This document shows, in pieces, positions 15,861-53,782 of a stretch of DNA of 64,000 nucleotides. Source of the DNA: Alphaproteobacteria bacterium (lineage in GTDB: Bacteria > Pseudomonadota > Alphaproteobacteria > Rs-D84); NCBI GenBank assembly GCA_050943575.1, contig JBMNPL010000002.1, positions 8,073 to 72,072 on the forward strand. The letters run 5' to 3'. A program made the position numbers and the translations under genes. The notes beneath the pieces were generated by a model that did not search any database, had not been told where the DNA came from, and saw nothing but the letters and a program-made list of their open reading frames with translations. Position 1 is the first letter of the stretch. Each line of letters opens with the position of its first letter.

Positions 15861-16490
15861 ATGGAAAAGCAAGATATCAGAACATTTGGTAGAATTCATG
15901 GAAAGCGGCTATCTGCTCGTCAACAATATTTAATTGATAATTTACTACCAACCCTGATACCTTTATTTAAAGATAATTCAGAAAAAATTCTAGAAATTGG
16001 CTTTGGTGCAGGAGAACATTTATTAAAATTAGCATCAGAAAACCCCGATAAAATTATTATTGGTGCAGAACCTTTTATAAACGGTGTTGCCAGTTTATTA
16101 TCAAAGATTACTGATAACAATAATAATATAAACTCAGAATTTAATAATATAAGAATTTGGCCAGATGATGTTAGAAAATTAATAAATAATAATGATTTTA
16201 AATTTCAACAAATATGGATTTTACATCCTGATCCGTGGCCCAAGGCACGACATGAAAAACGTAGATTATTATCCAGCGCATTTTTAAATCTTTTGTCCGC
16301 ACGCCTTGAATCAAACGGAAAAATTATAATCGGAACAGATCATTATGAATATTATGATTGGATTATAGAACAGTTACAACAAACAAAATTATCTATTATT
16401 GATGATTGTTTGCCGATTATTAAAACTAGATATCAACAAAAAAATAAAGCCGGAACAATTGTTCCAAAGTATTTAATTTTATCGCTTTAA
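15861..16490 (+). CDS. trmB: tRNA (guanine46-N7)-methyltransferase
   Basis: 209 aa. SAM-binding EIGFGAGEH and the HPDPWPKARHEKRRL motif. Confidence 0.8.
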   Translation: MEKQDIRTFGRIHGKRLSARQQYLIDNLLPTLIPLFKDNSEKILEIGFGAGEHLLKLASENPDKIIIGAEPFINGVASLLSKITDNNNNINSEFNNIRIWPDDVRKLINNNDFKFQQIWILHPDPWPKARHEKRRLLSSAFLNLLSARLESNGKIIIGTDHYEYYDWIIEQLQQTKLSIIDDCLPIIKTRYQQKNKAGTIVPKYLILSL

Positions 16491-19056: not shown

Positions 19057-19860
19057 TTATAATCTTTTCTGATTTTTTAGGTATAATTGCATATTAATAT
19101 TAATTGTGTTTAATTTATCTTTTAAAGATTTAATAGCATCTTCTTCCGAAGATCCTTCCCCCACAACTATTGGGATATCTAATGTATAATCTTCATCTTT
19201 TTCCCAAAATCTTTTTTCTCTATAAAGCTTAGCTGTAGACTCATACGCAATATATGTTGGTCTAACACTAACAGGTGCTGAAAATTCTTCCTCGTATTCA
19301 TTAGAGCTGCTGTAATAATTAGAACTTTTTTTTGGAAAAACTGAGTCATATCCTCTTGATAAATAAAAATTTCCAAAAAAATCATATAAATTTATCGATT
19401 TACCAACAATTAATCTGCCATTAATATCTTTGTCAAATATTATTTTGTGTGCTGTTTGCACCAATGTAGTTGGTGAACCAATATGATTTTTGATATTAAA
19501 TACAGATAATTTTTCCCCAGAAGGTAGAACTATTAAGGATAAATTAAAACACTTTGTTATAATAGCACCATTATCTTTTGCATTCCAAAGAGGAGATGTG
19601 GATTTAAAAACAATTTGTTTTAAATTCTTACAATTATGTATCCCACGAACTTCGATTTTATTAACATTTTTGGGGATTTCAAGAGTTTTAATTTCATCAA
19701 TATTATAAAAAGCTTCGGTATTTATAACTTGCACTGAAGTCGGTATTTTAAAAGTTCCATCTTCTATGTTATTTTTTCTAACTTTTTTTAAAACTTTATT
19801 ATCTTTAGATAGTATCGGTTTAGTATCTACTATTTTTAAGATCGCATCTTTGAATGACAT
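19057..19860 (-). CDS. BspA-type leucine-rich-repeat protein (putative)
   Basis: Repeated IPxxVxxIxxxAFxxCxxLxxIxxP-like units (IPTSVQVINTEAFYNIDEIKTLEIPKNVNKIEVRGIHNCKNLKQIVF). No signal peptide. Start chosen at MSFKD with RBS AAGGGTGG; the track start at 19890 overlaps the upstream OMP. Confidence 0.4.
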   Translation of the reverse strand: MSFKDAILKIVDTKPILSKDNKVLKKVRKNNIEDGTFKIPTSVQVINTEAFYNIDEIKTLEIPKNVNKIEVRGIHNCKNLKQIVFKSTSPLWNAKDNGAIITKCFNLSLIVLPSGEKLSVFNIKNHIGSPTTLVQTAHKIIFDKDINGRLIVGKSINLYDFFGNFYLSRGYDSVFPKKSSNYYSSSNEYEEEFSAPVSVRPTYIAYESTAKLYREKRFWEKDEDYTLDIPIVVGEGSSEEDAIKSLKDKLNTININMQLYLKNQKRL

Positions 19861-19870
19861 AACCACCCTT

Positions 19871-20581
19871 TTAAAATGATATATTGACACGTGTGCCGAA
19901 TTTCATATTATTTTGTTCAAAATCATATTCACCAAAGCCAACATATTGTGTGCGACCATATTGACGAACTAATTTCGCATTTACAATCGTTGTATCAAAA
20001 ATTGGATTTGTTGATTTTCTAAAATCTGCACCCATACCAATACGCCAATTTGAACTTAATCTGAAATAAATATCTGGCATTATATCAATCCAAGCCATCC
20101 CATTTAATTCATCAAAAATCCAACTTGATTTTAAAGCGCCGGATAATGTAACCCAATCCCAACTGCGACCAATACGAACACCACCAAAATAAATATTTTT
20201 ATCAAATCTGGGATCTGCATCACCAGAAACTTTTATTCCACCAAAAAGATCTGATTTAACTGCACCGTTTGACATACGATACATAGCATCAAAACCAAAA
20301 TATGAAAACCCATCATAATCACGTTCATCATTAAAATCTTGTTGATATTTAACGGTTGTACCTAAAACAAATATATCATTTATTCCATAAGCAGCCTTGA
20401 GCCCGACATCCAAAATATCATCACCAAAAGATAATCCGCCACGCATTGTAAAATCACGCGCTTGTTCAAAATACATCGGATCTTCGGTATCAAATATTGC
20501 GGCACTGGCACTGGAAAACAAAGCTATAAGCCCACAAAAAGCAACCCCTGTTAAAACAATTTTGTTTTTAATACAACTCAT
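19871..20581 (-). CDS. outer-membrane beta-barrel protein (putative)
   Basis: 236 aa. Signal peptide (SASA|AIF), alternating hydrophobic beta-strand pattern, C-terminal Phe. Confidence 0.5.
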   Translation of the reverse strand: MSCIKNKIVLTGVAFCGLIALFSSASAAIFDTEDPMYFEQARDFTMRGGLSFGDDILDVGLKAAYGINDIFVLGTTVKYQQDFNDERDYDGFSYFGFDAMYRMSNGAVKSDLFGGIKVSGDADPRFDKNIYFGGVRIGRSWDWVTLSGALKSSWIFDELNGMAWIDIMPDIYFRLSSNWRIGMGADFRKSTNPIFDTTIVNAKLVRQYGRTQYVGFGEYDFEQNNMKFGTRVNISF

Positions 20582-26773: not shown

Positions 26774-28444
26774 TTAAATTCTTTCAAACCAAGCGTCTAA
26801 TTCAGTAAAAGGAATAATTTTATAAACTGGGCGACCATGATTGCATTCGCCACCTCTTTCGGTTTTTTCAACATCACGCAATAATGCGTTCATTGATTCC
26901 AAGGTTAACTTTTGCCCCGCCCTGACAGAATGATGACATGCATAATTTGCTAATTTTAAATGTAATTTTTCATGTAATTGTGATGAATGCCCATTTGATA
27001 AAACTTCAAACGCTATATCTTTTAACAAACCTGCCCAATCCAAATCCCAATCTGCTGGTTTTTCATTAATTGATATAGAATCCTCGCCAAACTCAGCAAT
27101 ATCTAGTCCAGATTCTTTTAATTCACTTGCGACTTCCAAGACTGCTAAAACTTCTTCGGGTTTTAATTTAATAACTATCGGAACTAATAAATTTTGAACT
27201 TTGATTTTATGAGTTCGTAATTGTTCATAAATAATTCTTTCGTGTGCGGCATGTTGATCGGTTATTACCAATCCGTTTTCATTTTGCGATAAAATATATT
27301 TATTACTAATTTGACCAATTACTTGCCCCAAAGGCAAAAATACAGATTGATTGTTAATAACCTCATTTTCTTTGGTATTTGTATTTGGTTGTATAATTTC
27401 TTGCTCGTGGATAAGAAAAAAATTGTTATTATTAAACACATTTTGTGGTTGATAATCTGGCATTGAAGTCGGGATATTTTTCTTGGCCGCAAATCCAGTC
27501 ATTGGGATAGCCAATGCATCACGAATAGTTTTTATTATAAAACCACGAATGCGTGCTGGCTCTAGAAAATGAACTTCGGTTTTAGACGGAGAAACATTTA
27601 CATCTACTTCGGATACAGGCATATCCAAATATAAAGCACATAATGGAAATTCGCGTGCATTCATAACATCCATATATGCAGCGCGTAATGCGCCGATTAA
27701 AACACGATCTTTAACAGGTCTGCCATTTACAAATAAATATTGATCAACTGATGAAGCCCTGCGTAATGTGGGTTCAGATATCCATCCAGAAAGTTTCAAG
27801 CCATTATTTTCACGTTCAATTTTTAACATACGATTTTTAACTTCGTCGCCCATAACAGCCACGATTCGTTCAATCAATGATTGTCCTTTTGGAAAACGCC
27901 ATTTATTATTTAATGTAAAACCAATATCTGTACGCGCCATTGCTAAACGTTTTACAACTTCTACTATCGCCATCATTTCTCCACGATCACTGCGTAAGAA
28001 TTTTAATCTTGCTGGAATTCTTGCAAATAAATTTTCTATACGAATACGTGTACCAGATTCCCAAGAACTTGGTTTAATTTCGCCCGTTGTGGCATTTAAT
28101 TGCAAACCATTTGTATCAATTGTCATATCGCTGACACTGGCAATAGATGGTAAAGCTTCGCCCCGAAAACCCATAAAATTAATATTTAATAAATTATCTG
28201 ATGGAAGTTTACTAGTTGCATGACGTTTTATACTATTTGCTAAATCATCACGATGCATACCACGTCCATTATCTATAACTGAAATCAGAGTTCTGCCGCC
28301 ATCAATAACATCAATAACTATCTGGTCTGAACCTGCATCAATCGCATTTTCAATTAATTCTTTTACCACACTGGCGGGACGTTCTACTACTTCACCAGCG
28401 GCAATTTGATTAATTAAAAAATCGGGCAATATTCTAATCGGCAT
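26774..28444 (-). CDS. mutL: DNA mismatch repair protein MutL
   Basis: 556 aa with GHKL ATPase motifs (IAAGEVVERPASVVKELIENAIDAG) and a C-terminal dimerisation domain. Confidence 0.85.
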   Translation of the reverse strand: MPIRILPDFLINQIAAGEVVERPASVVKELIENAIDAGSDQIVIDVIDGGRTLISVIDNGRGMHRDDLANSIKRHATSKLPSDNLLNINFMGFRGEALPSIASVSDMTIDTNGLQLNATTGEIKPSSWESGTRIRIENLFARIPARLKFLRSDRGEMMAIVEVVKRLAMARTDIGFTLNNKWRFPKGQSLIERIVAVMGDEVKNRMLKIERENNGLKLSGWISEPTLRRASSVDQYLFVNGRPVKDRVLIGALRAAYMDVMNAREFPLCALYLDMPVSEVDVNVSPSKTEVHFLEPARIRGFIIKTIRDALAIPMTGFAAKKNIPTSMPDYQPQNVFNNNNFFLIHEQEIIQPNTNTKENEVINNQSVFLPLGQVIGQISNKYILSQNENGLVITDQHAAHERIIYEQLRTHKIKVQNLLVPIVIKLKPEEVLAVLEVASELKESGLDIAEFGEDSISINEKPADWDLDWAGLLKDIAFEVLSNGHSSQLHEKLHLKLANYACHHSVRAGQKLTLESMNALLRDVEKTERGGECNHGRPVYKIIPFTELDAWFERI

Positions 28445-31499: not shown

Positions 31500-31526
31500 A
31501 AACCGGCAAATGCCGGTTTTTTTATT
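31499..31526. terminator. bidirectional rho-independent terminator between convergent genes
   Basis: Hairpin aaccggc-aaat-gccggtt (31501-31518) followed by T7. The reverse side is T/A-rich. Confidence 0.55.
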
Positions 31527-34341
31527 TAATTACCATTTCTTGACCATAGGATGCGACTTTTCTGCCACCGATATAACAATTTATATCTGTTTGTTTATTA
31601 AAGTCTTCTATGGCTTTTTGACGAGCTTCTTCTAGTGCTTGGGCTTCTTTTTGATTAATAGCATTTCCAGCAATCATTCCACCAGCAACAGCACTTACAA
31701 CACCAGTAGTAATAGCACCGATATGAGCACCTTTGGTATCAAAATTTAATAAATGATTTTTTGGATTTTTTGTTTTTGATGTATAATTAGTATTAATATC
31801 ATTATATGTACTTTGACAAAGTTTTAATGCTTTACTTCCGACTGGATCACAATTAGGTGTTTTGGTATTATCAATATAATCACATTCCTGACAAGGATTT
31901 TGTGTACTATAATTCTTACCTTTTTGTTCTATACATTGATGACACTTGTTATATAAAGTTATTTTATCTGCATTAATATTAGTTGAATATCCTCTAGTTG
32001 CGTTTTGTATCGCATTTCCTGCCATTACACCACCCAGACCACCGATAACCAAACTACCCAATGTTGCACCACCAATTCGTAATGTTTTTTGAAGTCCGGT
32101 TAATTTTTCTGAACAATTATGAGTTGATGGAGTTTTACCATCCTTACAAAATTCTATTTCTTCTGCTATCTTACGTTCTATTTTTTCTAGTTGTTCCGTT
32201 GTTAAACCTAAACATTGCATAGTTGTGCCTTTGGGATAATACCGCACAGAATTTTCATTTTCTTTCAATACTTCTTGTACTTTAGCATTATTAGAACGCA
32301 TTGTTACTTTAACAGCACAAAAGCCATCAAATGGGTTATTAGTTGCTGTAACCTTATTCAATCCTTCATATTCATTATCTAACGATTCTATATCGGAAAG
32401 AGATGCCCAAATATAATCTTTGCTGGTGGAACCCTTGATATTGCTATTTTCACAAGCATTTTTGATATCATTGGCTTCGCGTTCTAATACGGAATTTGCA
32501 CGTTTACCAATATCTGCTAATAATCCATCAAAGATACTTTGTTCTTGTGTCGCACAAATTTTTATCTTTGTTGATATCTTTACTGTCGGATCAATCACAT
32601 TACCCGCATTATCTACTTTATCAAAATAAGTTTCAGACACACGACAAATATTGTCCGAAGTTTCGTTATTTGACGTAGCATCTAACCATGCATTACGAAC
32701 ATTGTTAGATGTTCCCCAAGAGTCAGCACTTGTACCTTTACTATTTCTTGCATATTGAACATCAAAATAATCTATACAATCTGTGAATTTTTTAACCTTT
32801 AACATACATAAATCACGTGCCATTTCTGTATCAAAACCACCAACAAATGAACCTGTCGAAGGTAAACCTTTTGATTTATTAATAAAACCTTTTTCAATAG
32901 TCAAATTATTAGTAGTATTATTGTTGGCGATTCTGCCTATCGCCGCAGAACTAGTAATAAAGCAACGTGAAAAATCATTTCCGCATTCGTCTTCTACACA
33001 CTTTTCAACTTGTGCTTGACAACTGGTGCGCATACCAGCAACTGCTTGTTCATTAAATGCTTTTTGTAAATCTGTATCCAAACCAACAATAGCGCCAATT
33101 GAATCATTTGTCCAAACCGCATCCCAAACATCACCATCTGAACCTGAATCTTTATTACGAAATACATCTTTACAATATTGATTATTTTCAATTAAATTCT
33201 TACATTGCCCTGTAATATCATGCGCGGCTTTATTTTTTATACTTACCGTATTTCCAACTTTAGCCAACCCATAACAACGGGCACGCGACCCTTCACCACA
33301 TGCATTAACTGCACAATCTGTTATAGCATTTTTACATTGCTCTACAGAATTTTTTGCTGCTAATGCCGCCCATTCTTTTATTTTAGATTGTGCCATTTTC
33401 CAACGCGCACCAACACCATTATACATAATATCTTGGTATACTTCCTGAATATTAAAACTATCTGTTAAATCAACTTCTTTGGCAGGTTTACCATTTGTAA
33501 CCATAAAACACCATTCATTAGTACCAATAGTATCACGACATTGTTCTTTGATATAATTTTTAACATTGCTATCATCCCAACCCATATTATAAATCCAAGT
33601 TTCCAACATATCTGGATTTAAACGAAGCGTAGTTTCGCCAGATGTTGCAATATTAACCATTTCAGATGCATCTATATCTGAAAATCCAGTTAAAGATATA
33701 CATTTATGCGGTGCACCTTTACAAGCATTTTGAATACAAGCATCTGCAGCCTTATTACAGGTTTTAACACTATTTGCAGCCGCCCAATTTTTACCATCTT
33801 TTATTGCTAAATCAATTCTACTCTCTGTAGCAACAGCAATATCACCTAATGCCGGTGTAAATGTTCTTTTGGTTAAAACAGATTCACCATCACACATTGT
33901 GCGATTTGCAGCCGCCATATCATCTGATGTTGTTACAGAATTTCCAAACAAAGCCTTGATCGCTTCAGCAGGACATTGAGCCAAAAATTCTTGGCACATA
34001 ATACGAGATTTATTAAATTGTTTTAAGTTATAACAAAGTTCAAAATGTTCACCGCACACGTTATCTTGGCGCAAACATGATTCATATCTATCAATACAAC
34101 GACCTGATGCCAAACGTTCAGGTAATGGATTTGCACATGTTGCCACCAAACCAGCATCCGCAGAAGGCTTGGTATTAATTACAGGTGCTATTTGCATTGT
34201 GTTTGGACGTGCCGTTGGTAATCGGCTTGTCGCGCTGGGACGTGATAAAGTCGCCATACCAATAGCCCTCGCCGGTACAGTGTAAATTCCTGATACCAAA
34301 GGTATCATTAAACTGATAATTATTGCTTTGTTTATTCTCAT
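31522..34341 (-). CDS. large Cys-rich secreted/surface protein with two C-terminal glycine-zipper segments
   Basis: 939 aa from the Met of the signal peptide MRINKAIIISLMIPLVSGIYTVPARA; the track ORF starts 15 codons upstream. Very many paired Cys. Two GxxxG-rich hydrophobic segments (GGATLGSLVIGGLGGVMAGNAI; GAHIGAITTGVVSAVAGGMIAGNAI). No recognisable enzymatic motif. Confidence 0.5.
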   Translation of the reverse strand: MRINKAIIISLMIPLVSGIYTVPARAIGMATLSRPSATSRLPTARPNTMQIAPVINTKPSADAGLVATCANPLPERLASGRCIDRYESCLRQDNVCGEHFELCYNLKQFNKSRIMCQEFLAQCPAEAIKALFGNSVTTSDDMAAANRTMCDGESVLTKRTFTPALGDIAVATESRIDLAIKDGKNWAAANSVKTCNKAADACIQNACKGAPHKCISLTGFSDIDASEMVNIATSGETTLRLNPDMLETWIYNMGWDDSNVKNYIKEQCRDTIGTNEWCFMVTNGKPAKEVDLTDSFNIQEVYQDIMYNGVGARWKMAQSKIKEWAALAAKNSVEQCKNAITDCAVNACGEGSRARCYGLAKVGNTVSIKNKAAHDITGQCKNLIENNQYCKDVFRNKDSGSDGDVWDAVWTNDSIGAIVGLDTDLQKAFNEQAVAGMRTSCQAQVEKCVEDECGNDFSRCFITSSAAIGRIANNNTTNNLTIEKGFINKSKGLPSTGSFVGGFDTEMARDLCMLKVKKFTDCIDYFDVQYARNSKGTSADSWGTSNNVRNAWLDATSNNETSDNICRVSETYFDKVDNAGNVIDPTVKISTKIKICATQEQSIFDGLLADIGKRANSVLEREANDIKNACENSNIKGSTSKDYIWASLSDIESLDNEYEGLNKVTATNNPFDGFCAVKVTMRSNNAKVQEVLKENENSVRYYPKGTTMQCLGLTTEQLEKIERKIAEEIEFCKDGKTPSTHNCSEKLTGLQKTLRIGGATLGSLVIGGLGGVMAGNAIQNATRGYSTNINADKITLYNKCHQCIEQKGKNYSTQNPCQECDYIDNTKTPNCDPVGSKALKLCQSTYNDINTNYTSKTKNPKNHLLNFDTKGAHIGAITTGVVSAVAGGMIAGNAINQKEAQALEEARQKAIEDFNKQTDINCYIGGRKVASYGQEMVIK

Positions 34342-34416
34342 AACTCCCACCATTCTTGTCAATATTCTATCATAAAAATATAACAATATAAAGAGAAAAA
34401 AGTAAAAAATAGATTT

Positions 34417-36189
34417 TCACTTTTTCTCTAAAAGTTCTTGAACAGCGGCTGCAAAATCTGGGGCTTTTTTTAGAAAACTGCCAGCAACCAGAAAATCTGC
34501 ACCTGCGACCCAACATTTTTTCGCGGTTTCCGGATTTATTCCGCCGTCAACACTTATTTTAAACTTTAATCCATGCTTGCGTCTAGTATTATTTAAAGAA
34601 GCAATTTTTGATATTGATTCTTCTATAAAAACTTGCCCCGATTTTCCTGGAATAACAGACATTATCATAACCTCATCAATATTTCGTAATATCGGAGCAA
34701 TAACTTCTAAATCAGTATTTGGATGTAAAGCAACACCCCCACGTTTACCCGCTGCACGTATTTTATTTAATGCACGTCTTACACCATTTGTACCAGATGA
34801 AACAATAATAGTATCTGCCCCACCCGCAATAGCCTCGGTCGCCCAATTAACTGGATTTTCCGTCATTAAATGAACATGTAAATGTGATTTAGTCCGAGAA
34901 CGAATAAAACGAAGTTCATCAATACCACTGGCAATATTATCAACATAAAAGCCATCCATTATATCAACATGAATCATATCTATGCCCGCAGATTCAAACA
35001 TAGTATAAGTATCTAAATTTCGCATATCCCAAACCAAAGTGCTGGGCATAATTGGAATAAATTTTTTCCGGCGCGAAAAAATCCTCCATCTTAAAGGCGC
35101 GGTTAAAAATCCAAAAAATTTATCCCATTTTTTTCTACGTTCCAAGTATGCTTTAACCCGTGATGATTCAGAATTCCAAATAAATTCTGCAAATGAATTA
35201 ACAATTCCAAATGCGCCCAAATTTTCAACCGGTATATTAAATTCTTTTTCTAAAACATCATCCAGTCCCATAATTCCAGACCCGCCGCCGCTTATATAAA
35301 TTTTAATCGGATTATACTTTTCAATTACTGGAATAAGTATTTCTTGAACTTGACTTAAAATCTCAGAAAAAATACTTTCTGTAATTTCATTCAAATCAAA
35401 TCTGGTTATATCATATTTTGCATCCGCCGGAGTAAACCTGTCCATATCTGTTTGTATTAAACTCATGCTGGAAACTTTTAACCTTTCTGCTTCGGATATC
35501 GGTAAATTAAAAGCCTGTGCAACTGATTTGGTTATATCAGCCCCGCCAATTGGTATTTTATTAATTAATATCGGACCACGTGCTGTCCATAAAGATACAC
35601 TTGTAAATTCTGCACCAAAATCTATGAATATTGAATTTTCTGATGCCAATCGTGCAGTTGACCCCAATAAAAACATAGGATCAAAAAAACCACCAGATCT
35701 AAGATGTGCCGAATGTAATACAGATTTTATATAAGATAAATCTTGAGAATTATATGCTATCACATTAAATACAGAATGTAATGCCCTATCAGTATGTCCA
35801 AGTGGATTTGAAATGTTATGAAAACCACCTAAATCATAACGTAAAGGAATTATATGAAGAACTGAGTTTTCACCTTGGAAAAAATCAAAAATTTGCTCTA
35901 AAATATCGTTTTGTGTAATTTTATGTTCTGCAGACCATATACTTTTTTTTGAAACAATTTTTGATTCAATCTGACCAAAATTCCCCGTAACAAATGCTTT
36001 ATCAAATCTTGTGCCAATTTGTTCTTCAAGACTATCAACCGCTGTTTTTATAGCATATGCTAAATCACTAGATTCTGTATATGCACTTGCAGATGTTTTA
36101 ATCCGTCCAAAACAAACCCTTGTGGCGACAGCATGAACTCCGCTGGAGCCTATATCTAAACATAAAAAAGAACCCTCGGTTAAGTTCAT
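34417..36189 (-). CDS. ftsA: in-frame fusion of cell-division protein FtsA (aa 1-380) and ribulose-phosphate 3-epimerase Rpe (aa 381-590)
   Basis: N-terminus aligns to FtsA (actin fold, CLDIGSSGVHAV...; IYISGGGSGIMGLDD) and ends in a basic amphipathic tail (WDKFFGFLTAPLRWRIFSRRKKF). It continues without a stop into a complete Rpe (MPSTL...HVDIMDGFYVDN...SVDGGIN...VAGSF). Confidence 0.65.
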   Translation of the reverse strand: MNLTEGSFLCLDIGSSGVHAVATRVCFGRIKTSASAYTESSDLAYAIKTAVDSLEEQIGTRFDKAFVTGNFGQIESKIVSKKSIWSAEHKITQNDILEQIFDFFQGENSVLHIIPLRYDLGGFHNISNPLGHTDRALHSVFNVIAYNSQDLSYIKSVLHSAHLRSGGFFDPMFLLGSTARLASENSIFIDFGAEFTSVSLWTARGPILINKIPIGGADITKSVAQAFNLPISEAERLKVSSMSLIQTDMDRFTPADAKYDITRFDLNEITESIFSEILSQVQEILIPVIEKYNPIKIYISGGGSGIMGLDDVLEKEFNIPVENLGAFGIVNSFAEFIWNSESSRVKAYLERRKKWDKFFGFLTAPLRWRIFSRRKKFIPIMPSTLVWDMRNLDTYTMFESAGIDMIHVDIMDGFYVDNIASGIDELRFIRSRTKSHLHVHLMTENPVNWATEAIAGGADTIIVSSGTNGVRRALNKIRAAGKRGGVALHPNTDLEVIAPILRNIDEVMIMSVIPGKSGQVFIEESISKIASLNNTRRKHGLKFKISVDGGINPETAKKCWVAGADFLVAGSFLKKAPDFAAAVQELLEKK

Positions 36190-36200
36190 GTTTATTAAAT

Positions 36201-36884
36201 TTATAATTTTACCAATGGACGTGATAAATCACGCATATCTAATAATTTTATTTGCCTATCTAAAATCATATTTTGCTTATTCATATTATCTATTTTTGTT
36301 ATCGCTTGTTCAAAATTTTCTTCGGGCAGCATAATCTTCATACCGTTTAATAAAAAAATATCCCAACGTCTGTCTTCTATAAACTCCATTCTATCAATAG
36401 AATAAAAAAGATTAGGAGTGTGTTTTACTATTTTTATCGTTTTTGATAAATCTTGTGGAACTTGCCCAGAAAAAACTAGTGTATTTTCCGGTCTTGTGGA
36501 TGATGGTTTATTAATTGGTGCACCTGTATCATCCAAAGGATAATAATTTTCACCATCAGTCCAACTAGCAACAATAACACGCATATCTGCACGAATTTTA
36601 ATTTCGCCATTTGGTAAACGACGAACAGCAACATTTGCAATATCTGGATCTGATGCAACACGAGCTAAAACATCATTTAAATCAATATGTTTATCTGTAT
36701 GATCTATTCCCAATCTTGTAATTAAATCTGATGCTTTACCATTATCAGAATAAACCGAAACTTTTTTTACATCTGATAATATACCACCAATCCCCATTGA
36801 TACCATGCTAATACGCACTGCTATATAAATCGCAAGCAAAATCGCAATGCAAAACATTAACCAAAATAAAAACTTATTCTTCAT
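36201..36884 (-). CDS. ftsQ: cell division protein FtsQ
   Basis: 227 aa with an N-terminal TM and POTRA-like domain. Sits immediately upstream of ftsA. Confidence 0.65.
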   Translation of the reverse strand: MKNKFLFWLMFCIAILLAIYIAVRISMVSMGIGGILSDVKKVSVYSDNGKASDLITRLGIDHTDKHIDLNDVLARVASDPDIANVAVRRLPNGEIKIRADMRVIVASWTDGENYYPLDDTGAPINKPSSTRPENTLVFSGQVPQDLSKTIKIVKHTPNLFYSIDRMEFIEDRRWDIFLLNGMKIMLPEENFEQAITKIDNMNKQNMILDRQIKLLDMRDLSRPLVKL

Positions 36885-37792: not shown

Positions 37793-39109
37793 ATGAAAAA
37801 AATATATATACTCTTTGTGTTTTGTTCATTGTTTTTTATTAGCGCATGCCAATTTAGACAAGACACAGAGCAATTTGATGAAATACAAGTTATTGAAAAT
37901 ATAGTAATAGATGAATATTCTGTCCCTATTTTCCCACGCAAAGCCGCATTAACAACTGATACTGCACGTAGATTTGCTATAGATTTACCAAAACGTTGTA
38001 AAGTTGATTGGGATAATCATAATTTACTATCTGTTTTACCATCAAATCCTGTAGAAATTGTGCGATTAAATAAAGGTGATGATTTACCTAATTTTGTAGT
38101 AGAAGATTTTTCTTTTAAGAAAAAAAGCGTCCCTGAGGTTTTAGAAAAATTACTAATTGGTACTAAAATCAAAATCGTTGCTAGCGAAAAATTACCCGAT
38201 TTAATTAGCGGGGAAATAAAATCTGGAACACTAGAAGATGCTGTTGAGCTTATTTGTAAACTAGGTAAAACCTATTATACGTATGACGATGATACAAAAG
38301 AAATTCGTATTTCTAGTCGTGGAAAATGGCTGATGAAAATGCCAAAGGATGAATATGTAATTATGGCTTTAATTGACGCAATGCATGGTTATAACTTGCG
38401 TAATTTAATGACCAACTGGAAAGATAAAACTTTGGTGTTTGAAGGTAATTATCAAACAGAAAAAAAAGTTCGAGATATAATTGCTGATATTGGAAATAAA
38501 AAATTCTTGATTGCTTGGGATATGGATATTTATCGTGTATATCCACGTACTGACAATCCAATTGTTTGGATGAATATGCTACCTGCGTTTGGTGAAAAAA
38601 ATATCAGAATGTCAATCCCTGGGGTAGTCGGAAGATTGTTGGTTGTATCACCTGAAATAAATACAAAAACATTGCAATCGTTTTTAGCACAACAATCAAA
38701 TGTAGTGTTAATTTCCCAAGGAACATTTGTAATACCAAATGGCTGGCAAAGTAGATTTGATATTGGACAATGTTCTCGTGAAGAAAGATTAGAAACAGAT
38801 TTAATAATTGGTGCAACTGGTAAATATGGTAAATATGCAGATATGACTAAACTAGATGCAAAAATTGCATTACGTACAACAAATGGAGAATTGGCTAGTT
38901 TTAACGCACCAACAACTCTTGGGGATAACTATGTTATTATTGGAATACCCACACATAGTTTTGTAACTGGACCTGAAACATTAATAAACCCATTTGCAGA
39001 ATTGGTGATATTTATGAGCCCACGTATTATTTCAATCGTAGAACCAGATAATGCAGATGACGCCACAGAACTTTCCGGTGATAAACTGCGTGAGTATTTA
39101 GATGAATAA
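37793..39109 (+). CDS. lipoprotein with secretin-like N-domain and secretin-like C-terminus (putative liposecretin)
   Basis: 438 aa. Lipobox FISAC. A segment (VPEVLEKLLIGTKIKIVASEKLPDLISGEIKSGTLEDAVELICKLGKTYYTYDDDTKEIRI) matches the Secretin_N/STN pattern. The C-terminus (NYVIIGIPTHSFVTGPETLINPFAELVIFMSPRII) resembles the secretin ...ELLIFITPRII ending. RBS AAGGA. Confidence 0.35.
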   Translation: MKKIYILFVFCSLFFISACQFRQDTEQFDEIQVIENIVIDEYSVPIFPRKAALTTDTARRFAIDLPKRCKVDWDNHNLLSVLPSNPVEIVRLNKGDDLPNFVVEDFSFKKKSVPEVLEKLLIGTKIKIVASEKLPDLISGEIKSGTLEDAVELICKLGKTYYTYDDDTKEIRISSRGKWLMKMPKDEYVIMALIDAMHGYNLRNLMTNWKDKTLVFEGNYQTEKKVRDIIADIGNKKFLIAWDMDIYRVYPRTDNPIVWMNMLPAFGEKNIRMSIPGVVGRLLVVSPEINTKTLQSFLAQQSNVVLISQGTFVIPNGWQSRFDIGQCSREERLETDLIIGATGKYGKYADMTKLDAKIALRTTNGELASFNAPTTLGDNYVIIGIPTHSFVTGPETLINPFAELVIFMSPRIISIVEPDNADDATELSGDKLREYLDE

Positions 39110-39120
39110 AAGGACAAATA

Positions 39121-39339
39121 ATGAAAGTGCTAAAATGGATAAAAATATGTATAAAAACTATAATTTCTCTTTTTATAGCAATCATTATTAGTAATCTTAT
39201 AAGTGATGTGGTTTATAATTTGATACGAATATCATCACTTGAACGATTAACTTTTATTATCGTATTTTTATTTACCGGGTACAAAACTCTCCCAGAAACT
39301 GTTAAAAATGCTGTAAAAAATGGTATAAAAAATTGGTAG
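39121..39339 (+). CDS. small two-TM membrane protein
   Basis: 72 aa with RBS AAGGA. Lies between the secretin-like gene and lolC. Confidence 0.35.
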   Translation: MKVLKWIKICIKTIISLFIAIIISNLISDVVYNLIRISSLERLTFIIVFLFTGYKTLPETVKNAVKNGIKNW

Positions 39340-39345
39340 GTTAAA

Positions 39346-40599
39346 ATGTTTAGTCGTTTGGAAAAGAAAATTGCATTTAGATATTTACGCGCACGCGGAC
39401 GTGGATTCGGTAGTGTTATTTCATGGGTATCATTACTGGGTATTGCACTGGGGGTTGCAACACTTATTGTTGTTATGTCTGTTATGGGTGGTTTTCATGA
39501 TACCCTGCTTTCACGTATTGTTGGTATGAATGGACATGTTGTTGTTTATCACCAAGATGGTGCAATTAAAGATTTTGATTACTTAATTGAAAAAATAAAA
39601 TCAAATAAAATTGTTATAGAAAATACTAACAATATTATCCCTGTTCTAGAAGGACAAGCAATGGTATCTGCAAATGGTAAAAATTCTGGAACAATGGTTC
39701 GTGGTATTAGAATGAACGATTTAGAACGCAAATTTCAAAAAGGTACAAAAATTTATGGAACACCCCTTTCAAAAATTCAAAGTGGACAATTAATAATGGG
39801 TGCCCCATTGGCAAGAATGTTGCGCCTTACTATAAATAATAATGCAACACTTATAAGTGCAAATGGTGGAACAGCAACAGCATTTGGAACTATGCCACGA
39901 ATACAATCATATCCTGTCGCAACAACATTTTTCGTAGGTATGTATGAATATGATTCTGGTTATATCTTTATGCCCTTGGAAACCGCGCAAAAGTTTTTAA
40001 ATTCCCCTGATGGTGTTTCGCATATAGATTTATTCTTAAAAAATTCAGAAAAAACAGATGTTGTTCGCAATGCTTTATCAGATAGTCTGCCAAATGGATT
40101 TGTAGTTCGTGATTGGCGTGATTTAAATCGTAGTTTTGTCGGTGCATTACAAGTTGAATCAAATGTAATGTTTTTAATTTTATTATTAATAGTAATCGTT
40201 GCAGCATTTAATATTGTATCTAGCTTGGTTATGCTGGTTAAAGATAAATCACGAGATATTGCAGTATTGCGAACATTTGGTGTTTCACGAAATAGTATGA
40301 TGAAAATATTTATTTTATGCGGTACAAGTATTGGAATTATTGGTGCTGTAATTGGAACAATTGTGGGTGTCTTGGTTGCAAAATATATTGAACCAATACG
40401 ACAGTTTTTTCAATGGATAACTGGTCGTGATTTGTTCCCATCAGAACTATACTTTCTTTCTGAATTACCATCTAGAATAGAATTTTGGAATGTTTTTGGA
40501 ATTGCTTTTATCGCAATCGCATTAGCATTTTTGGCAACTCTTTACCCAGCATGGAAAGCAGCTAAAACAGATCCAGTAGAAGTTTTAAGGAATGAATAA
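39346..40599 (+). CDS. lolC: lipoprotein-releasing system permease LolC/LolE (FtsX/MacB-type)
   Basis: 417 aa. N-terminal region similar to LolC (FRYLRARGRGFGSVISWVSLLGIALGV). A periplasmic domain is followed by the FtsX 3-TM bundle. Confidence 0.75.
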   Translation: MFSRLEKKIAFRYLRARGRGFGSVISWVSLLGIALGVATLIVVMSVMGGFHDTLLSRIVGMNGHVVVYHQDGAIKDFDYLIEKIKSNKIVIENTNNIIPVLEGQAMVSANGKNSGTMVRGIRMNDLERKFQKGTKIYGTPLSKIQSGQLIMGAPLARMLRLTINNNATLISANGGTATAFGTMPRIQSYPVATTFFVGMYEYDSGYIFMPLETAQKFLNSPDGVSHIDLFLKNSEKTDVVRNALSDSLPNGFVVRDWRDLNRSFVGALQVESNVMFLILLLIVIVAAFNIVSSLVMLVKDKSRDIAVLRTFGVSRNSMMKIFILCGTSIGIIGAVIGTIVGVLVAKYIEPIRQFFQWITGRDLFPSELYFLSELPSRIEFWNVFGIAFIAIALAFLATLYPAWKAAKTDPVEVLRNE

Positions 40600-41314
40600 A
40601 ATGGCAGCACCAATATTAAAATCTTTATCTTCTGTAAAAAAACGAGCAACTGTTATGTCAGTTGTTGGTATTAAAAAATCTTTTATGGAAGGTGGACAAC
40701 CATTAAATATTTTACGTGGCGGAGGATTTGAATTAATGCGTGGTGAAATTGTCGCTCTGGTCGGTCCATCAGGATGTGGTAAATCTACCCTGATACAATG
40801 TGTTGGATTGCTGGATCAACCAAGTGGGGGGCAAATTACTATTACCGGTATTCCAGTTCATAAAATGAACGAAGATCAACGCACATTAATCCGCAGAACT
40901 AAACTCGGTTTCGTTTATCAACGTCATAATTTATTGGAAGATTTTACAGCTCTTGAAAATGTGATGATGCCTATGCTGGCAAATAATATGAATGAAGATG
41001 ATGCGCGTATTCGTGCAAAAAAATTACTAAAAGCTACAAATATTTTACACCGCGCAAATCATAGACCTGCAGAAATGTCCGGTGGCGAACAACAACGTAC
41101 TGCTGTGGCACGTGCGCTTGCTAATAAACCTGAGATTGTTCTGGCAGACGAACCAACAGGATCACTTGATCCAACACACGCATCAAATGTTTTTGACTTG
41201 CTATTATCTTTAGCAAAAAAAACACGTATGTCTATGTTATTCGTAACACATGATATGAATCTAGCAAAACGTGCCGATAGAATAATTACTATAAAAAATG
41301 GAATTGTTGGATGA
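40592..41314 (+). CDS. lolD: lipoprotein-releasing system ATP-binding protein LolD
   Basis: 240 aa with Walker A GPSGCGKST, ABC signature SGGEQQR and Walker B LADEPTGSLD. Confidence 0.8.
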   Translation: MNKMAAPILKSLSSVKKRATVMSVVGIKKSFMEGGQPLNILRGGGFELMRGEIVALVGPSGCGKSTLIQCVGLLDQPSGGQITITGIPVHKMNEDQRTLIRRTKLGFVYQRHNLLEDFTALENVMMPMLANNMNEDDARIRAKKLLKATNILHRANHRPAEMSGGEQQRTAVARALANKPEIVLADEPTGSLDPTHASNVFDLLLSLAKKTRMSMLFVTHDMNLAKRADRIITIKNGIVG

Positions 41315-42431
41315 AAATAAATTTAAAATACCTATCTGAAACTTGGCGGAAATTTTCGCAATTCTCTAAACATCAAATTTCAACATCCATATTAAAAATT
41401 CAAGAGATTGAACAAGCGACTATTATGCCGCATCAACCAAATATTAAAATAGGAATCCCTCAAAAAGTTCGTGGTGTTCGTATTCGTAAATATGGGCAAC
41501 AATCAGCAAATTATATTGATAAAGAAGTAATTCTTTTAGGGGCTGCAGATCCATTTTTTGGACACTTTTTAGCAGATGGGCTTTCTCGCGCTTGGCCTAT
41601 TTTAGATAAAAAATTTATTAATTATACTTTCGTAGTAGTTCAAGGACGCGGGGGGGTGAATTAAAAAATTTTGCTAAACAACTTTATAAACTTGTAGGTA
41701 TAAAGAAATTACTTTTTATAACAAAACCAACAAGGTTTAAAAAAATACTCATTCCTGATTTATCTTTTAATTATACGCGCGGTATAGCACATAAAAAATA
41801 CACCGATACTTTTGCAAAAATCGCATCAACAGTTCCAACAGATAAATCTTTACCGAATAAAATTTATCTATCGCGAACAAAACTTGGGTATAATGAAACA
41901 TTTGGTGAAAAAACAATTGAAAATATTTTTGCAAAAAATGGATTTACTATTATTTATCCAGAACAATTATCCCTAGAAAAACAAATACAATTAATGAAAG
42001 CTGCACAAACAATTGCTGGAGTTAGCGGAACAGCACTACATTTATCTCTATTCGCACAAAATGGAATAAAATTAATTTGTATTCATAAAAGAAATTATAT
42101 TTTAAAAATGCAGATTCTAATTGATAAATTAAAAAATATAAATGGAACATATATTGATGCATTTTTAACTATTGGAAATTTGAAAAAATGTGATGGAAAA
42201 TCTTCAGCCGCTTTAATCGGAATAAATAAAAATTTGCAGAATTTTTTTAATGATAATAATTTTATATATTCACTTGATAAAAATAATAATACAAAAGAAT
42301 ATAAACAATTTATACAATCATTTAATAAACAACGAAGAATAATCCCAAAATGGTTAGGTGGAATTATACTTTCATTTGTTCCATCCCATAATTTACGACA
42401 TTCTTTAAGAAAAAAATGGAGATTAAAATAA
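41311..42431 (+). CDS. GT61/DUF563-like glycosyltransferase interrupted by a frameshift in a G7 tract (two ORFs 41311-41664 and ~41655-42431)
   Basis: The C-part has the DUF563 pattern (NETFGEKTIENIFAKNGFTIIYPEQLSLEKQIQLMKAAQTIAGVSGTALHLSLF). The N-ORF ends 8 nt after a G7 run; adding one G joins both parts into a ~373-aa protein. Confidence 0.5.
41650..41656 (+). repeat. homopolymeric G7 tract inside the glycosyltransferase coding sequence
   Basis: cgcGGGGGGGtgaa. The longest G/C homopolymer noticed in this otherwise AT-rich window. Confidence 0.9.
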
Positions 42432-49771: not shown

Positions 49772-51076
49772 TTACTCTAAATTCAAGTTATTATATTTTT
49801 GAGTCACACGATTTTTAATTTCATTTATTGCCTTGGTATAATCTGAAATTGTAGCATTATTGTTTGCCGCAACACTTCTTATTATTGTTTCCGTTTCAGT
49901 TTTTATAGTTTTTGATTCTTTGTTAATCGCTGATTTTAATAATGGATTCAACACGCCACATAAAATGTCTGATAGGTGTGCCACATCTGTTTGTAAATCC
50001 CAATAATATGAAGAATCTGCAGGATCTTCTATACGTTCAGTTATATTTATTTTTGGTGCAACAGAACCAGTATATCCAACAGTTACCGTTCTGGCAGTAA
50101 CTCTACCTCTTGTTACATCCATAATATTACTAATTTTTAAAGTTGCAGATTTATCGCTACCATTAACTGATAACCAATTTAAATTTAAATCTCTAACCCA
50201 TAATTCATTAGCTTCAAGTCTGGAAAATCTACCTGTGTCACCTAATAATAATTCTCCAGAAATTTCCGCGTTTCTTGAATCTGATGTAAGTGTACCCATC
50301 ACCAATGTTTCCCCTGTAATTTTTAATTGTGTATCTAATTCTGTCCGTGGTGAAATTTGAACTTTTTGAGCAACAATCGAATCAGATTTAAGAATTTCTG
50401 TAAAATCTGAATTACGTGCATCTATTGATAAAATATTGTTTATATTATTTCCACCCATTAGTAAATTTGAAGACATGGAAGAATCAAAGGAATTTTTAGA
50501 AGGTGTGCGCCATAAAAAATCACCACCAGATAAAAGTGTTTTCGTCCCACCAACAATAGAATTTTTACCCAATTGAGCATCAAAAATATTTGTCCTAGAA
50601 CGCCATGTACCAAATGCACCATGTGCATGATTTTTATCTATAAATCCTGATGATACACCACCAAGCTCTGCTATTTCACGAGTGCGTAATGGGGATATAT
50701 CTGCAGAATTATATATAACCATACCAGATAATACAGAATGCCCCGCCATATCCCGAGATTTTATTATGCGCGCCTGAAATTTATCATGATCTTTTGGAAT
50801 ATTCCCATATTTAGCTAAATCACGAATTTTAACCTTGGTAATCACACGCCCCGTTGGTTCAAATAATTTGATTTTATGTGCAATCATATATCTTTCTAAT
50901 GCATCTTTAGTTATATCAATATCTCTTGCTATACGAACATTTTCAGCACGTTTAGCACGATCATTTAACTCGCGCATAACAAACGGTAAAATAGAAGCAG
51001 CAATTGCTAAAGATAAAAGAATTTCTAGCAACATCCCGCCAAATTCATTCTTAAAAAATTTATTTTTATTCATCAT
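49772..51076 (-). CDS. large type IV prepilin-like protein (third of three)
   Basis: 434 aa. Basic leader MMNKNKFFKNEFG, then GMLLEILLSLAIAASILPF (G|xxxxE with E at +5) and a hydrophobic alpha1-like segment. The remainder is beta-rich with Ser/Thr/Asn repeats. Confidence 0.45.
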   Translation of the reverse strand: MMNKNKFFKNEFGGMLLEILLSLAIAASILPFVMRELNDRAKRAENVRIARDIDITKDALERYMIAHKIKLFEPTGRVITKVKIRDLAKYGNIPKDHDKFQARIIKSRDMAGHSVLSGMVIYNSADISPLRTREIAELGGVSSGFIDKNHAHGAFGTWRSRTNIFDAQLGKNSIVGGTKTLLSGGDFLWRTPSKNSFDSSMSSNLLMGGNNINNILSIDARNSDFTEILKSDSIVAQKVQISPRTELDTQLKITGETLVMGTLTSDSRNAEISGELLLGDTGRFSRLEANELWVRDLNLNWLSVNGSDKSATLKISNIMDVTRGRVTARTVTVGYTGSVAPKINITERIEDPADSSYYWDLQTDVAHLSDILCGVLNPLLKSAINKESKTIKTETETIIRSVAANNNATISDYTKAINEIKNRVTQKYNNLNLE

Positions 51077-51093
51077 GTTTTATTACTTGTAAA

Positions 51094-52341
51094 TTACATA
51101 TCTTGCCATCCACTGGTAATTATTGGCAAAAAATCGTTATTATTTGGTACAATAAGCGTTTCACCAATTTCATTATTATTTACCTTTTTTAAAAACAAAT
51201 TAGAAAATCTGGGACCATTAATCGATGGGAAATACCATCTCCCTAACCTAATTGGAGCACCGCCTGTACTAGAATATAATAATTCACCCGAGATTGTTAT
51301 TCCGAAATCTTTTTGAAAAATTAAATTATCAGTGGATAAAAAAGGTGTCGCAATAGATTGAGCGCGAATACCCGCAAAGCTTGTAATTATCCTTGAACTT
51401 TCGGACCGAACAATCATATCATTTTGAACATGTATTGGGCCATTTATATTTACCATATCTACAATTATATCTCCGCGAGAAGACCATGATGATCCGGATG
51501 ATGTACCAATACCTTTTAATTTATCCGCTGTAATATTTCTGAAACCAGAAATATCATCGCTTACATTTATCGATTCAAACTCTGCATTAGATGCATCTAT
51601 TGACATACCTTCGGGAAAAAAGATCTCTTTTGTTTTAATAATTCCCGATTCAACAAACCATGTTTTTACATTTGTTGAATTTAAAGTTTTGGCATTTATT
51701 TTTCCAATATCAAAAATATTATTCTTTACCATATCTATATCTCGATACATAGTATTCAATTCTATATTATCTAAATATATTCTATGTAAATATTTATACG
51801 AATCATCTTTTCCTAAAATGTCAGATATTCTAAAAATTAAATCGCCTTCGCTAAATAATTCTGATGAAATACCCCATCCCGCAGAACTAATAGCTTCACC
51901 ACCAGATTCTACAATTGCAGCATCTGTACCTAAATTCCTTACAATATTTGCTACTCTAATTTTTTTTATTTTAATCGGTCTAAATGCAATATATGCATTT
52001 ATAGAAGTTCCACTAGAATCTTCGCGTTTCTCAATAAATCCGGCATAAGGGTCTAATAAACGATTATCACCTTTATTAAGAATTTTTAGTTGATTTTGAT
52101 TAAATTCTACTTGTGCATTTGATGGCCAATCAGATTGATTTTTACGAACATAAGCCATAATAGGATCGCCCCAAGCTATAATATGCTTTGATTCGCTAAT
52201 ATCCGCAATCTGATTACTCATATTTATCGCACCATTATATGCAAATGGTATTATTGCACCAACAATTGCTATAGCCAGCAGAGTTTCTATCAACCCTGCA
52301 CCTTTTTGTTCTTTATAAAAATCTCTGTTTTTGTTTTTCAA
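51094..52341 (-). CDS. large type IV prepilin-like protein (second of three)
   Basis: 415 aa. Leader MKNKNRDFYKEQKG, then mature AGLIETLLAIAIVGAIIPFAY, a textbook class III signal with E5. Confidence 0.5.
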   Translation of the reverse strand: MKNKNRDFYKEQKGAGLIETLLAIAIVGAIIPFAYNGAINMSNQIADISESKHIIAWGDPIMAYVRKNQSDWPSNAQVEFNQNQLKILNKGDNRLLDPYAGFIEKREDSSGTSINAYIAFRPIKIKKIRVANIVRNLGTDAAIVESGGEAISSAGWGISSELFSEGDLIFRISDILGKDDSYKYLHRIYLDNIELNTMYRDIDMVKNNIFDIGKINAKTLNSTNVKTWFVESGIIKTKEIFFPEGMSIDASNAEFESINVSDDISGFRNITADKLKGIGTSSGSSWSSRGDIIVDMVNINGPIHVQNDMIVRSESSRIITSFAGIRAQSIATPFLSTDNLIFQKDFGITISGELLYSSTGGAPIRLGRWYFPSINGPRFSNLFLKKVNNNEIGETLIVPNNNDFLPIITSGWQDM

Positions 52342-52345
52342 TTAA

Positions 52346-53782
52346 TCACTCACAATTAGTTTGTCCATTTATTTTACATTGCTTTATGTTTATACGACGC
52401 TCTAATCTTTGCCAAAAAACGAACTGACAAACAATGTTTTGAGATATGGAATTTGAATTATATGCCGGGGCTGAAGGTAAAGAAGAAATTATTGTTTTAC
52501 AACTAACTACTTCACCATCATCTAGATCTGGATTTTTAAGTATTTGAAATTCATCATTATTTATTGTATCAGATAAAACATCCGGCAAAACAGAAACACC
52601 AGCCGGTCTAATATCCATAACTATTGCGCCATCAATACCAGATAATAAAGCACTTGAAACCTGATCTCGTAAAGTTATAAATGCTGTGCTTATTTTTTGT
52701 GCCTCTATCCCACTTTTTGTCGCATATGTTAATTCATATTCATCAATAAATACATCTTGACCACGTGATGCGTTTATAAATCCATTTATTTCTATATGTT
52801 CTGTATCTATAGAAATATTATTTAAAATAACATCACTATGAACATTCCAATCATACATCCCATAAAATCCAGTTCTTCCGACAGACATTGATAAAGAATT
52901 TATTAAAGCTGTATTAACATAAACATAACCTGGTAATCCATATTTAAACAAATATCGCCCTGATAACGAATTAGTTTTTAAATTACCACGATAAATATTT
53001 AATGGATTATCGCCATTGTTTGATTGAAATACTGCACGATCAGAAGTTAAATAATTTATTTTATTTTTAAATCTTCTGTTATCACTAGAACCAACAATAG
53101 AAAGAGTATTAAAATTTCCATTATTTAAGTCTGCGTTTTTAGATACTAATGATGTGATATTTTTTATAGAAAAATTTCCCATATTTAAATCTGTATAAAA
53201 TTTTGACCTATCAGGATCATTCGTTTTTCGACGAACCAATTCTGAAAAATCATCATTAGTTGATACCAAAACATAAATAGCAGAAATATCCGGTTTTATC
53301 CCATAATCTTTTAAATTCTTATTCCATCCGCCTACCCCTTGTAAAACACCATTCTTATCCGATGTTGCAGCATTAGGCCCAATACGCGATATTAACTCTC
53401 TACGTTTTACTTCTGAAAGATCTCCATTATGCAAAATTATTAAACTTAATATTTCAGATTCATTTTTCACTGTTAAAAGTGATATTTTTTGTCCTATAAT
53501 TGTTTGAGGAATAAACCCTAATGGTAATCCAAATGGTTCTAATAAATCTGAAAAGTCTTCACCAGCAATATTTTGTTGACCATAAGCAAGATTATCTTTA
53601 CTTACTCTAATAAATTCTCGAGCAGCACGTACCGCACTATTAGTTTGCTGTGCAATCGCATTTAACGAATAGTCATTTTTTCTTGATGATAGTTTTTGTG
53701 CCAAAAAAGGCATAAAAATCATAACTAAAGCAACTGCTAACAAAGCTTGCAGTAAAAAATTTCCACGGGATTCGCTTTGCAA
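52346..53782 (-). CDS. large type IV prepilin-like protein (first of three; Q at +5)
   Basis: 478 aa. Short leader MQSESRG, then NFLLQALLAVALVMIFMPFL. As in minor pseudopilins of the GspK/PilX type, Q replaces the usual E5. Confidence 0.4.
   Translation of the reverse strand: MQSESRGNFLLQALLAVALVMIFMPFLAQKLSSRKNDYSLNAIAQQTNSAVRAAREFIRVSKDNLAYGQQNIAGEDFSDLLEPFGLPLGFIPQTIIGQKISLLTVKNESEILSLIILHNGDLSEVKRRELISRIGPNAATSDKNGVLQGVGGWNKNLKDYGIKPDISAIYVLVSTNDDFSELVRRKTNDPDRSKFYTDLNMGNFSIKNITSLVSKNADLNNGNFNTLSIVGSSDNRRFKNKINYLTSDRAVFQSNNGDNPLNIYRGNLKTNSLSGRYLFKYGLPGYVYVNTALINSLSMSVGRTGFYGMYDWNVHSDVILNNISIDTEHIEINGFINASRGQDVFIDEYELTYATKSGIEAQKISTAFITLRDQVSSALLSGIDGAIVMDIRPAGVSVLPDVLSDTINNDEFQILKNPDLDDGEVVSCKTIISSLPSAPAYNSNSISQNIVCQFVFWQRLERRINIKQCKINGQTNCE

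Follow-up and report, generated by a model that had tools for sequence, protein, structure and literature searches.

Is a glycosyltransferase gene cut in two by a run of guanines a sequencing error, a gene that is being lost, or a gene that can be switched back on? This question is raised by a locus in a 64,000-nucleotide stretch of DNA (hereafter, the window), which has a GC content of 32% and forms part of an 80.9-kb contig of a metagenome-assembled genome (MAG) labelled 'Alphaproteobacteria bacterium'. The initial annotation, made from the letters of the window, proposed that a run of seven G nucleotides splits a gene of glycosyltransferase family 61 (GT61) and that the gene might be phase-variable. 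Here we show that the locus is a genuine GT61 gene that is intact but out of frame, and that its frame is set by the poly-G tract. We lean towards regarding it as a candidate slippage-prone, contingency-type (phase-variable) switch, with all of the sampled populations in the OFF state.

A GT61 gene out of frame at a poly-G tract

The tract (G7) lies at positions 41650–41656 in the context GGACGC GGGGGGG TGAATTAA of the window sequence (positions 41640–41670 read TCAAGGACGC GGGGGGG TGAATTAAAAAATT). The upstream open reading frame (ORF), which spans positions 41311–41664 and encodes 117 amino acids, terminates at a TAA codon (41662–41664) 8 nucleotides past the G run. A frame that is offset by 2 from this ORF is open from about position 41645 to a stop codon at 42429–42431. 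The addition of one G (G8) produces a single open frame of 373 amino acids with zero internal stops, and the removal of two (G5) produces one of 372 amino acids. The tract is the sole frame break in the gene. The initial annotation had described the run, the stop codon that follows it, and the continuation to position 42431 upon insertion of one extra G, and all of these coordinates were borne out. The tract is read as two GGG codons in succession, a codon that accounts for only 12% of the glycine codons in the window.

The annotation of the source MAG keeps the locus as two separate fragments, MGI5845737.1 (hypothetical protein) and MGI5845738.1 (GT61 family protein). We rejected the possibility that the C-terminal half is expressed on its own. 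Its frame contains no ATG, GTG or TTG start codon before position 41994, and translation from this earliest start would give a 145-amino-acid fragment without most of the domain.

The protein that results from joining the two frames with G8 matches the Pfam family PF04577 (Glyco_transf_61) over residues 83–255, which correspond to profile positions 1–136 of 137, with a score of 61.2 bits against a cutoff of 27 bits and an E value of 1.7e-16. The match crosses the junction, which is located at residue 115. Full-length homologues of 370–382 amino acids cover 99% of the joined protein at 49–52% identity and are colinear with it across the break. The proposal that the two ORFs represent one glycosyltransferase of about 373 amino acids was thus confirmed: the domain spans the junction, the C-terminal motif is present, and the intact orthologues are colinear.

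An AlphaFold (AF2) model of the joined protein, calculated from the orthologue alignment, has a predicted local distance difference test score (pLDDT) of 85.3 and a predicted template modelling score (pTM) of 0.84. In a Foldseek search of the PDB, the best 16 matches of this model were all POMGNT2 (E values of 3e-9 to 3e-7, probability of 1.0, TMq of about 0.44), with a sequence identity of just 10–13%. POMGNT2, which we take to be a member of CAZy family GT61, is the only GT61 fold found among the solved structures matched by the model. A sequence-profile search of the PDB and a search of NCBIfam returned no match. Membership in the GT61 family is supported by both domain and fold.

In the model, the tract encodes residues G114–G116 of a GRGGG loop that connects a β-strand (residues 106–110) to a helix (residues 120–129). 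This loop is a 3-residue insertion relative to the orthologues, among which the loop length varies. As modelled, the tract sits at a tolerant position, in a surface loop of variable length.

The enzyme probably acts on a cell-envelope glycan. Bacterial GT61 genes have been reported within the capsule gene clusters of Vibrio sp. KMM 8419 and Neisseria weaveri (PMC11641403, PMC6202450). Two more distant homologues of the window gene are found in other settings: one (locus L007, about 50% identity, non-syntenic with the window) neighbours a gene with a WaaA/KdtA-type glycosyltransferase domain, and the other (locus L004) shares a locus of about 11 kb with lptD and lptF/G. These contexts offer a weak hint that the predicted role of the enzyme may be in envelope-glycan or lipopolysaccharide (LPS)-core glycosylation.

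Tract length and selection among strains

To the window we compared 11 further public assemblies of the same species, which are 98.5–100% identical to it over the gene and which were obtained from the contigs of protein-collection clusters of both gene fragments. These assemblies come from different projects and runs and were produced by MEGAHIT, SPAdes and Logan (contig names k127, k141 and NODE_ are those of short-read assemblers). The tract is G7 in nine of the 12 assemblies (the window, L008, L009, L011, L012, L013, L014, L015 and L016) and G9 in the other three: L010 (GCA_012799735.1), L017 (SRR11702766) and L018 (ERZ2647956). L008 (SRR31066179) is 100% identical to the window and possibly derives from the same sample; L009 and L016 originate from biogas-fermenter metagenomes. 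Scans of JGI metagenome contigs and of genome contigs with the tract pattern found no match. L011 (ERZ2647912, 1.5x), L015 and L018 (1.6x) have a very low coverage and are less reliable than the other contigs. The G9 allele encodes a 116-amino-acid stub that ends with GRGGG and is followed by UGA. With the tract set to G8, an intact 373-amino-acid ORF is obtained in every full-length strain.

The tract is the only length difference among the credible assemblies over about 5.3 kb. The same 5.3 kb contain eight A/T runs of at least 7 nucleotides, none of which varies in length among these assemblies. Single-nucleotide polymorphisms (SNPs) at positions 41589, 41590 and 41631 are 19–61 nucleotides away from the tract, within the reach of a single read, and define local haplotypes. 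Haplotype CGC carries G7 (the window and L008), and haplotype TGC carries G9 (L017). Both lengths are found on haplotype CAC (G7 in L011–L016, G9 in L018) and on haplotype TGT (G7 in L009, G9 in L010). Absent very local recombination, this distribution requires at least three independent net 2-nucleotide changes of the tract, or two if the low-coverage L018 is discounted. As SNP diversity in the gene amounts to 0.018 per site and 0.051 per synonymous site, the tract has, by a rough estimate, changed about 40–170 times more often than the average site. Phase variation at simple sequence repeats (SSRs) is described as switching at 100–10,000 times the basal rate, and the estimated excess at the tract falls at the lower end of this range (PMC11868660).

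The gene contains 20 SNP sites across the strains, of which 12 are synonymous and 8 are non-synonymous, with six synonymous and four non-synonymous sites in each half. The ratio of non-synonymous to synonymous polymorphism (pN/pS) is 0.18 for the GT61 gene, compared to 0.19 for lolC, 0.23 for addB and 0 for lolD, and the pooled flanking genes (30 synonymous and 19 non-synonymous sites) are indistinguishable from the GT61 gene in a Fisher test (P = 1.0). Given the observed mutation classes, 14.6–15.6 of the 20 sites are expected to be non-synonymous under neutrality; the probability of finding 8 or fewer is 1.3e-4 with polarised and 1.7e-3 with unpolarised changes, figures that should be read with the small SNP counts and the very low coverage of three of the contigs in mind. 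The SRAW motif, which close orthologues share without exception, is altered by two of the 8 non-synonymous SNPs: W95C, seen in L010, and A94T, carried by most strains. The 11 related contigs contain no further indel or premature stop codon in the GT61 gene outside the tract.

As judged from these sequences, the gene was under ordinary purifying selection while the strains diverged, which contradicts the idea that the frameshift was already fixed in the ancestor of the strains and has been silent ever since. The plain pseudogene offered as an alternative in the initial annotation is at odds with these findings, because the relatives carry no extra disabling mutation and the pN/pS of 0.18 is like that of the flanking housekeeping genes. 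An old, decayed pseudogene was rejected on the same two grounds.

Interpretation of the out-of-frame alleles

We favour the following mechanism. Strand slippage during replication would add or remove a G and thereby move the gene between G8 and G7 or G9. The G8 state would be ON and yield the full-length enzyme, and the G7 and G9 states would be OFF and yield a stub of 116–117 amino acids. Homopolymer slippage proceeds mostly in single-base steps. With this property and with G7 and G9 flanking G8, the simplest history is that G8 genomes exist or existed on several haplotypes. Slips of −1 or +1 from G8 would have given rise to populations with G7 and G9, which are the prevalent ones in the digesters sampled. 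A requirement for ON cells somewhere or sometimes would keep the ORF intact, and the OFF state would be favoured in the sampled anaerobic digesters, for example as an escape from a phage or a predator that recognises the glycan. A pair of OFF lengths on either side of the ON length, combined with purifying selection, is, in our moderately confident assessment, the population signature to be expected of a contingency locus in which OFF is favoured. The anatomy of the gene, the length polymorphism, its recurrence and the constraint on the sequence are shown by the data; the reversibility, the ON cells and the selective agent are what we infer. The phase-variable gene put forward in the initial annotation thus stands in part: G7 and G9 occur among near-identical strains and the gene is constrained, but neither an ON allele nor switching was observed.

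Several observations weigh against this mechanism. An in-frame length (G8, G5 or G11) is absent from the 12 consensus assemblies, a consensus being blind to a minority of ON cells. A collection of 15 billion proteins, queried with the joined protein and with a 170-amino-acid piece spanning the junction, contained no near-identical protein that crosses the junction. The consensus is G7 in nine of the 12 assemblies despite their SNP divergence, so the tract is not extremely unstable. The SNPs fail the four-gamete test, and recombination or chimeric low-coverage contigs (L018, 1.6x) could partly explain the incongruence between tract length and haplotype; since recombination occurs, the recurrence argument is supportive rather than conclusive. 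The window encodes an intact mutL (26774–28444, − strand) with ATPase, DNA_mis_repair and MutL_C domains. Judging by this gene, mismatch repair is probably present in the organism, a point to be weighed when the possible instability of a G7–G9 tract is considered. The PhasomeIt cutoff for Neisseria is a G run of at least 9, which places G7 below and G9 at the cutoff, such thresholds being species-specific, and the G7 tract of Neisseria siaD switches at a rate of less than 1e-5 (PMC5953494). Judged by the same source, a G7 run is at or under the size generally regarded as sufficient for efficient phase variation.

The genomic setting and the base composition add to these points. The GT61 gene is surrounded by housekeeping genes (lolCD-addB) and is not part of a surface-polysaccharide island. 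Comparison with orthologues in related genomes showed that the syntenic ones (about 52% identity; loci L001 and L003) are intact, in frame and devoid of a G run at the site of the tract. Because these orthologues do not have it, the tract is, by this sequence comparison, a young, lineage-specific feature. A search of GTDB genomes for related loci returned none. The initial annotation had argued from the rarity of poly-G in AT-rich DNA. The tract is indeed the only G/C run of at least 7 nucleotides in the window, but dinucleotide-preserving shuffles of the window contain 1.43 such runs on average, with at least one in 67 of 100 shuffles, so that its presence is within chance expectation. We therefore dropped rarity as an argument. 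What is beyond chance is the coincidence of the tract with the only frame break and with the only site that is polymorphic in length among the strains.

The main rival, which we hold to be possible though on balance unlikely, is a recent and recurrent loss of the GT61 gene at its most mutable site. In this scenario the enzyme would have become superfluous or detrimental for the species, the tract would have undergone −1 and +1 slips from an ancestral G8 with no adaptive reversibility, and the gene would be a pseudogene in the making. Such loss agrees with the OFF state of every sampled assembly (nine G7, three G9), the lack of an ON allele on record in the assemblies or the protein collection, the shortness of the tract in an organism with MutL, the A94T and W95C changes of the SRAW motif, and the existence of orthologues without any tract. 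It fits poorly with a pN/pS that is no different from that of the essential genes on either side and lies well away from the neutral value, and with the finding that no strain carries a second disabling mutation. Furthermore, two of the local haplotypes carry G7 as well as G9, and the inactivation would have to be very recent and repeated in each sampled lineage, with the ON ancestors unsampled. A series of such recent inactivations is hard to tell from a switch whose OFF state is selected. A third explanation, an intact gene whose real tract is G8, is next to negligible. Homopolymers are prone to error, some contigs have a very low coverage, and in L011 three single-base deletions, which are probably assembly errors, split lolC (the equivalent of window positions 39993–40404). 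However, 12 assemblies from different projects and assemblers display G7 or G9 and never G8, and short-read assemblers rarely miscall an 8-mer at the consensus level. Errors scattered around a true G8 would not skip G8, which is why we reject an artefact; the homopolymer sequencing error contemplated in the initial annotation is excluded on this evidence.

The selection on both halves of a gene whose alleles are all out of frame could be explained if RNA polymerase stuttering or ribosomal frameshifting on the G run produced a low level of full-length enzyme from the OFF alleles, an explanation that we find improbable. The G9 run is followed by an in-frame UGA (GGG GGG GGG UGA A), where a +1 shift at GGG-UGA would give the exact G8 product, a geometry that resembles the prfB +1 frameshift site, and stuttering by ±1 base could rescue G7 and G9 alike. 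On the other hand, no stimulatory RNA structure is found downstream of the tract (minimum free energy z-score of 0.16), and C GGG GGG, the context of the slip site in G7, departs from the canonical X XXY YYZ heptamer; a −1 programmed frameshift was rejected for these two reasons. Ribosomes would also need to shift in opposite directions on the two alleles (−1 on G7, +1 on G9), the site is not conserved, as the orthologues are simply in frame and have no G run, and transcriptional slippage in bacteria is known mainly on A or T runs of about 9 or more. A bolder form of this explanation, to which we give slim credence, is that the out-of-frame alleles are the working state of the gene and that slippage on G7 and on G9 would provide full-length GT61 enzyme in small, adjustable quantities. 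By analogy with prfB, the +1 shift on G9 at GGG-UGA would be preceded by a Shine-Dalgarno-like G run. If true, this arrangement would explain housekeeping-level purifying selection on an always-OFF gene and would constitute a recoding device on a G homopolymer, located in an uncultured alphaproteobacterium. Taking all of the above into account, we return to the slippage-prone switch as the reading that we favour.

The neighbourhood of the gene and known slippage switches

The coordinates of the GT61 gene, its parts and the adjoining gene are collected in Table 1. The ATG codon of the GT61 gene overlaps the lolD stop codon by 4 nucleotides (ATGA), and the same overlap is present in the orthologous loci L001 and L003. 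The gene order lolC-lolD-GT61, followed by a convergent addB and then engB, is common to the window and the orthologous loci L001 and L003. In view of the overlap, lolC, lolD and the GT61 gene are probably co-transcribed.

Table 1 Position and supporting evidence of the GT61 gene, its parts and the adjoining upstream gene
Feature	Position in the window	Strand	Evidence
Complete GT61 glycosyltransferase gene, with its frame broken in the present sequence; 373 amino acids with G8	41311..42431	+	Joined translation; colinear orthologues; Pfam GT61 match across the junction; AF2 model
N-terminal ORF, 117 amino acids; the final residues VN are out-of-frame read-through, followed by TAA	41311..41664	+	ORF list; identical product annotated as MGI5845737.1
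Poly-G tract, G7 here and G9 in L010, L017 and L018; position of the frame break	41650..41656	+	Sequence; strain comparison; model
C-terminal reading frame, 258 codons and a stop; includes a conserved basic/hydrophobic tail and the larger part of the GT61 domain	41658..42431	+	Translation; orthologue alignment
lolD (ABC ATPase), directly upstream and overlapping the GT61 start	40592..41314	+	ORF list; orthologous loci

The second-longest G run of the window, a G6 at positions 40826–40831 (+ strand), belongs to lolD, where it is read as GGG GGG. Its length is constant among the strains, and in L010 a synonymous G>T change breaks it up. Farther upstream, a 216-bp segment (39112–39327) between a gene encoding 438 amino acids and lolC carries a small ORF for a hydrophobic protein of 72 amino acids (39121–39339, + strand). 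This segment is present in the window and in L008 and is cleanly missing from L010, L011 and L013, with an ATAAAA repeat at the junction. Loci L001 and L003 contain a gene of nearly the same length as the 438-amino-acid ORF (438 and 436 amino acids, no Pfam matches), which is located upstream of lolC and is not adjacent to it.

The window as a whole is densely coding, with no tRNA gene detected by ARAGORN and no Rfam family detected at the gathering threshold over its 64 kb. Large ORFs that have no Pfam match at E values up to 1e-5 are found at 31522–34386 (− strand, 954 amino acids), at 49772–53782 (− strand, a row of three encoding 434, 415 and 478 amino acids) and at 37793–39109 (+ strand, the 438-amino-acid ORF mentioned above). 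A 657-amino-acid ORF at 5519–7492 (− strand) contains a YbeY endoribonuclease domain (residues 33–153) followed by the LNT_N (180–340) and CN_hydrolase (415–610) domains of apolipoprotein N-acyltransferase; apparently, either ybeY and lnt are fused here or the stop codon between them has been lost. Another ORF of 590 amino acids (34417–36189, − strand), directly downstream of ftsQ (36201–36884), combines an FtsA domain (residues 188–322) with a complete ribulose-phosphate 3-epimerase domain (380–572) and looks like an ftsA-rpe fusion. Two further genes are located among housekeeping genes: one encodes a BspA-type leucine-rich-repeat protein (19057–19890, − strand) and the other a 400-amino-acid protein with a phage-lysozyme domain (16487–17689, − strand).

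That homopolymers switch surface-glycan enzymes on and off is textbook knowledge for a few host-adapted pathogens, and we know of hardly any documented case in uncultured environmental bacteria or in the Alphaproteobacteria. Public metagenome assemblies sufficed to show that the tract is real, that its length has changed recurrently, and that the gene has been kept by selection even with every consensus out of frame. Current annotation pipelines fail to connect the two parts of the locus and list them as a 'hypothetical protein' and a truncated GT61. If the gene is truly a switch, it would show contingency loci at work in engineered anaerobic ecosystems, with phages or grazers as the probable source of pressure, and a simple recipe for finding them in MAGs would be to look for OFF lengths that flank an ON length together with a low pN/pS.

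The locus resembles the poly-G/C phase-variable glycosyltransferase genes of Campylobacter jejuni, Neisseria (lgtA/C/D/G and pgl) and Helicobacter pylori (fut) in that the frame of a glycan-building enzyme depends on a G run inside its gene. As in the loci of these organisms, closely related strains differ in tract length, the remainder of the ORF is kept, and the tract falls in a tolerant, glycine-rich loop. Their tracts, however, are usually G8–G14, switch at measured rates of 1e-2 to 1e-4, and are readily seen in both ON and OFF states, whereas here only G7 and G9 were found, both of them OFF. The host differs as well, being an uncultured alphaproteobacterium with AT-rich DNA that lives in anaerobic digesters, encodes MutL and shows only one such tract in 64 kb. 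Furthermore, the lolCD-addB housekeeping context distinguishes this gene from the bacterial GT61 genes reported in capsule clusters.

The closest match is the (dC)7 tract of the Neisseria meningitidis polysialyltransferase gene siaD, in which a 7-base G/C run within a surface-polysaccharide glycosyltransferase gene causes reversible inactivation by frameshifting. This tract is regarded as a low-rate switch that arose by chance (PMC5953494). The reference state of siaD is ON and its OFF variants are rare, whereas the consensus is OFF everywhere in the present case and the enzyme belongs to a different family (GT61). Another coding 7-base G/C homopolymer, the 7C tract of Mycobacterium tuberculosis glpK, toggles gene function by ±1 slippage in natural populations and underlies reversible frameshift drug tolerance. 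Unlike the GT61 gene, glpK is a metabolic gene of mycobacteria, which do not have canonical mismatch repair, and its reversibility has been demonstrated experimentally. The locus thus resembles known slippage switches, its membership among them not being established, as ON/OFF alternation was sought at the consensus level and was not found. What makes it unusual beside them is its host, an uncultured digester alphaproteobacterium, and the clean pattern in which OFF lengths flank the ON length of a gene with a low pN/pS.

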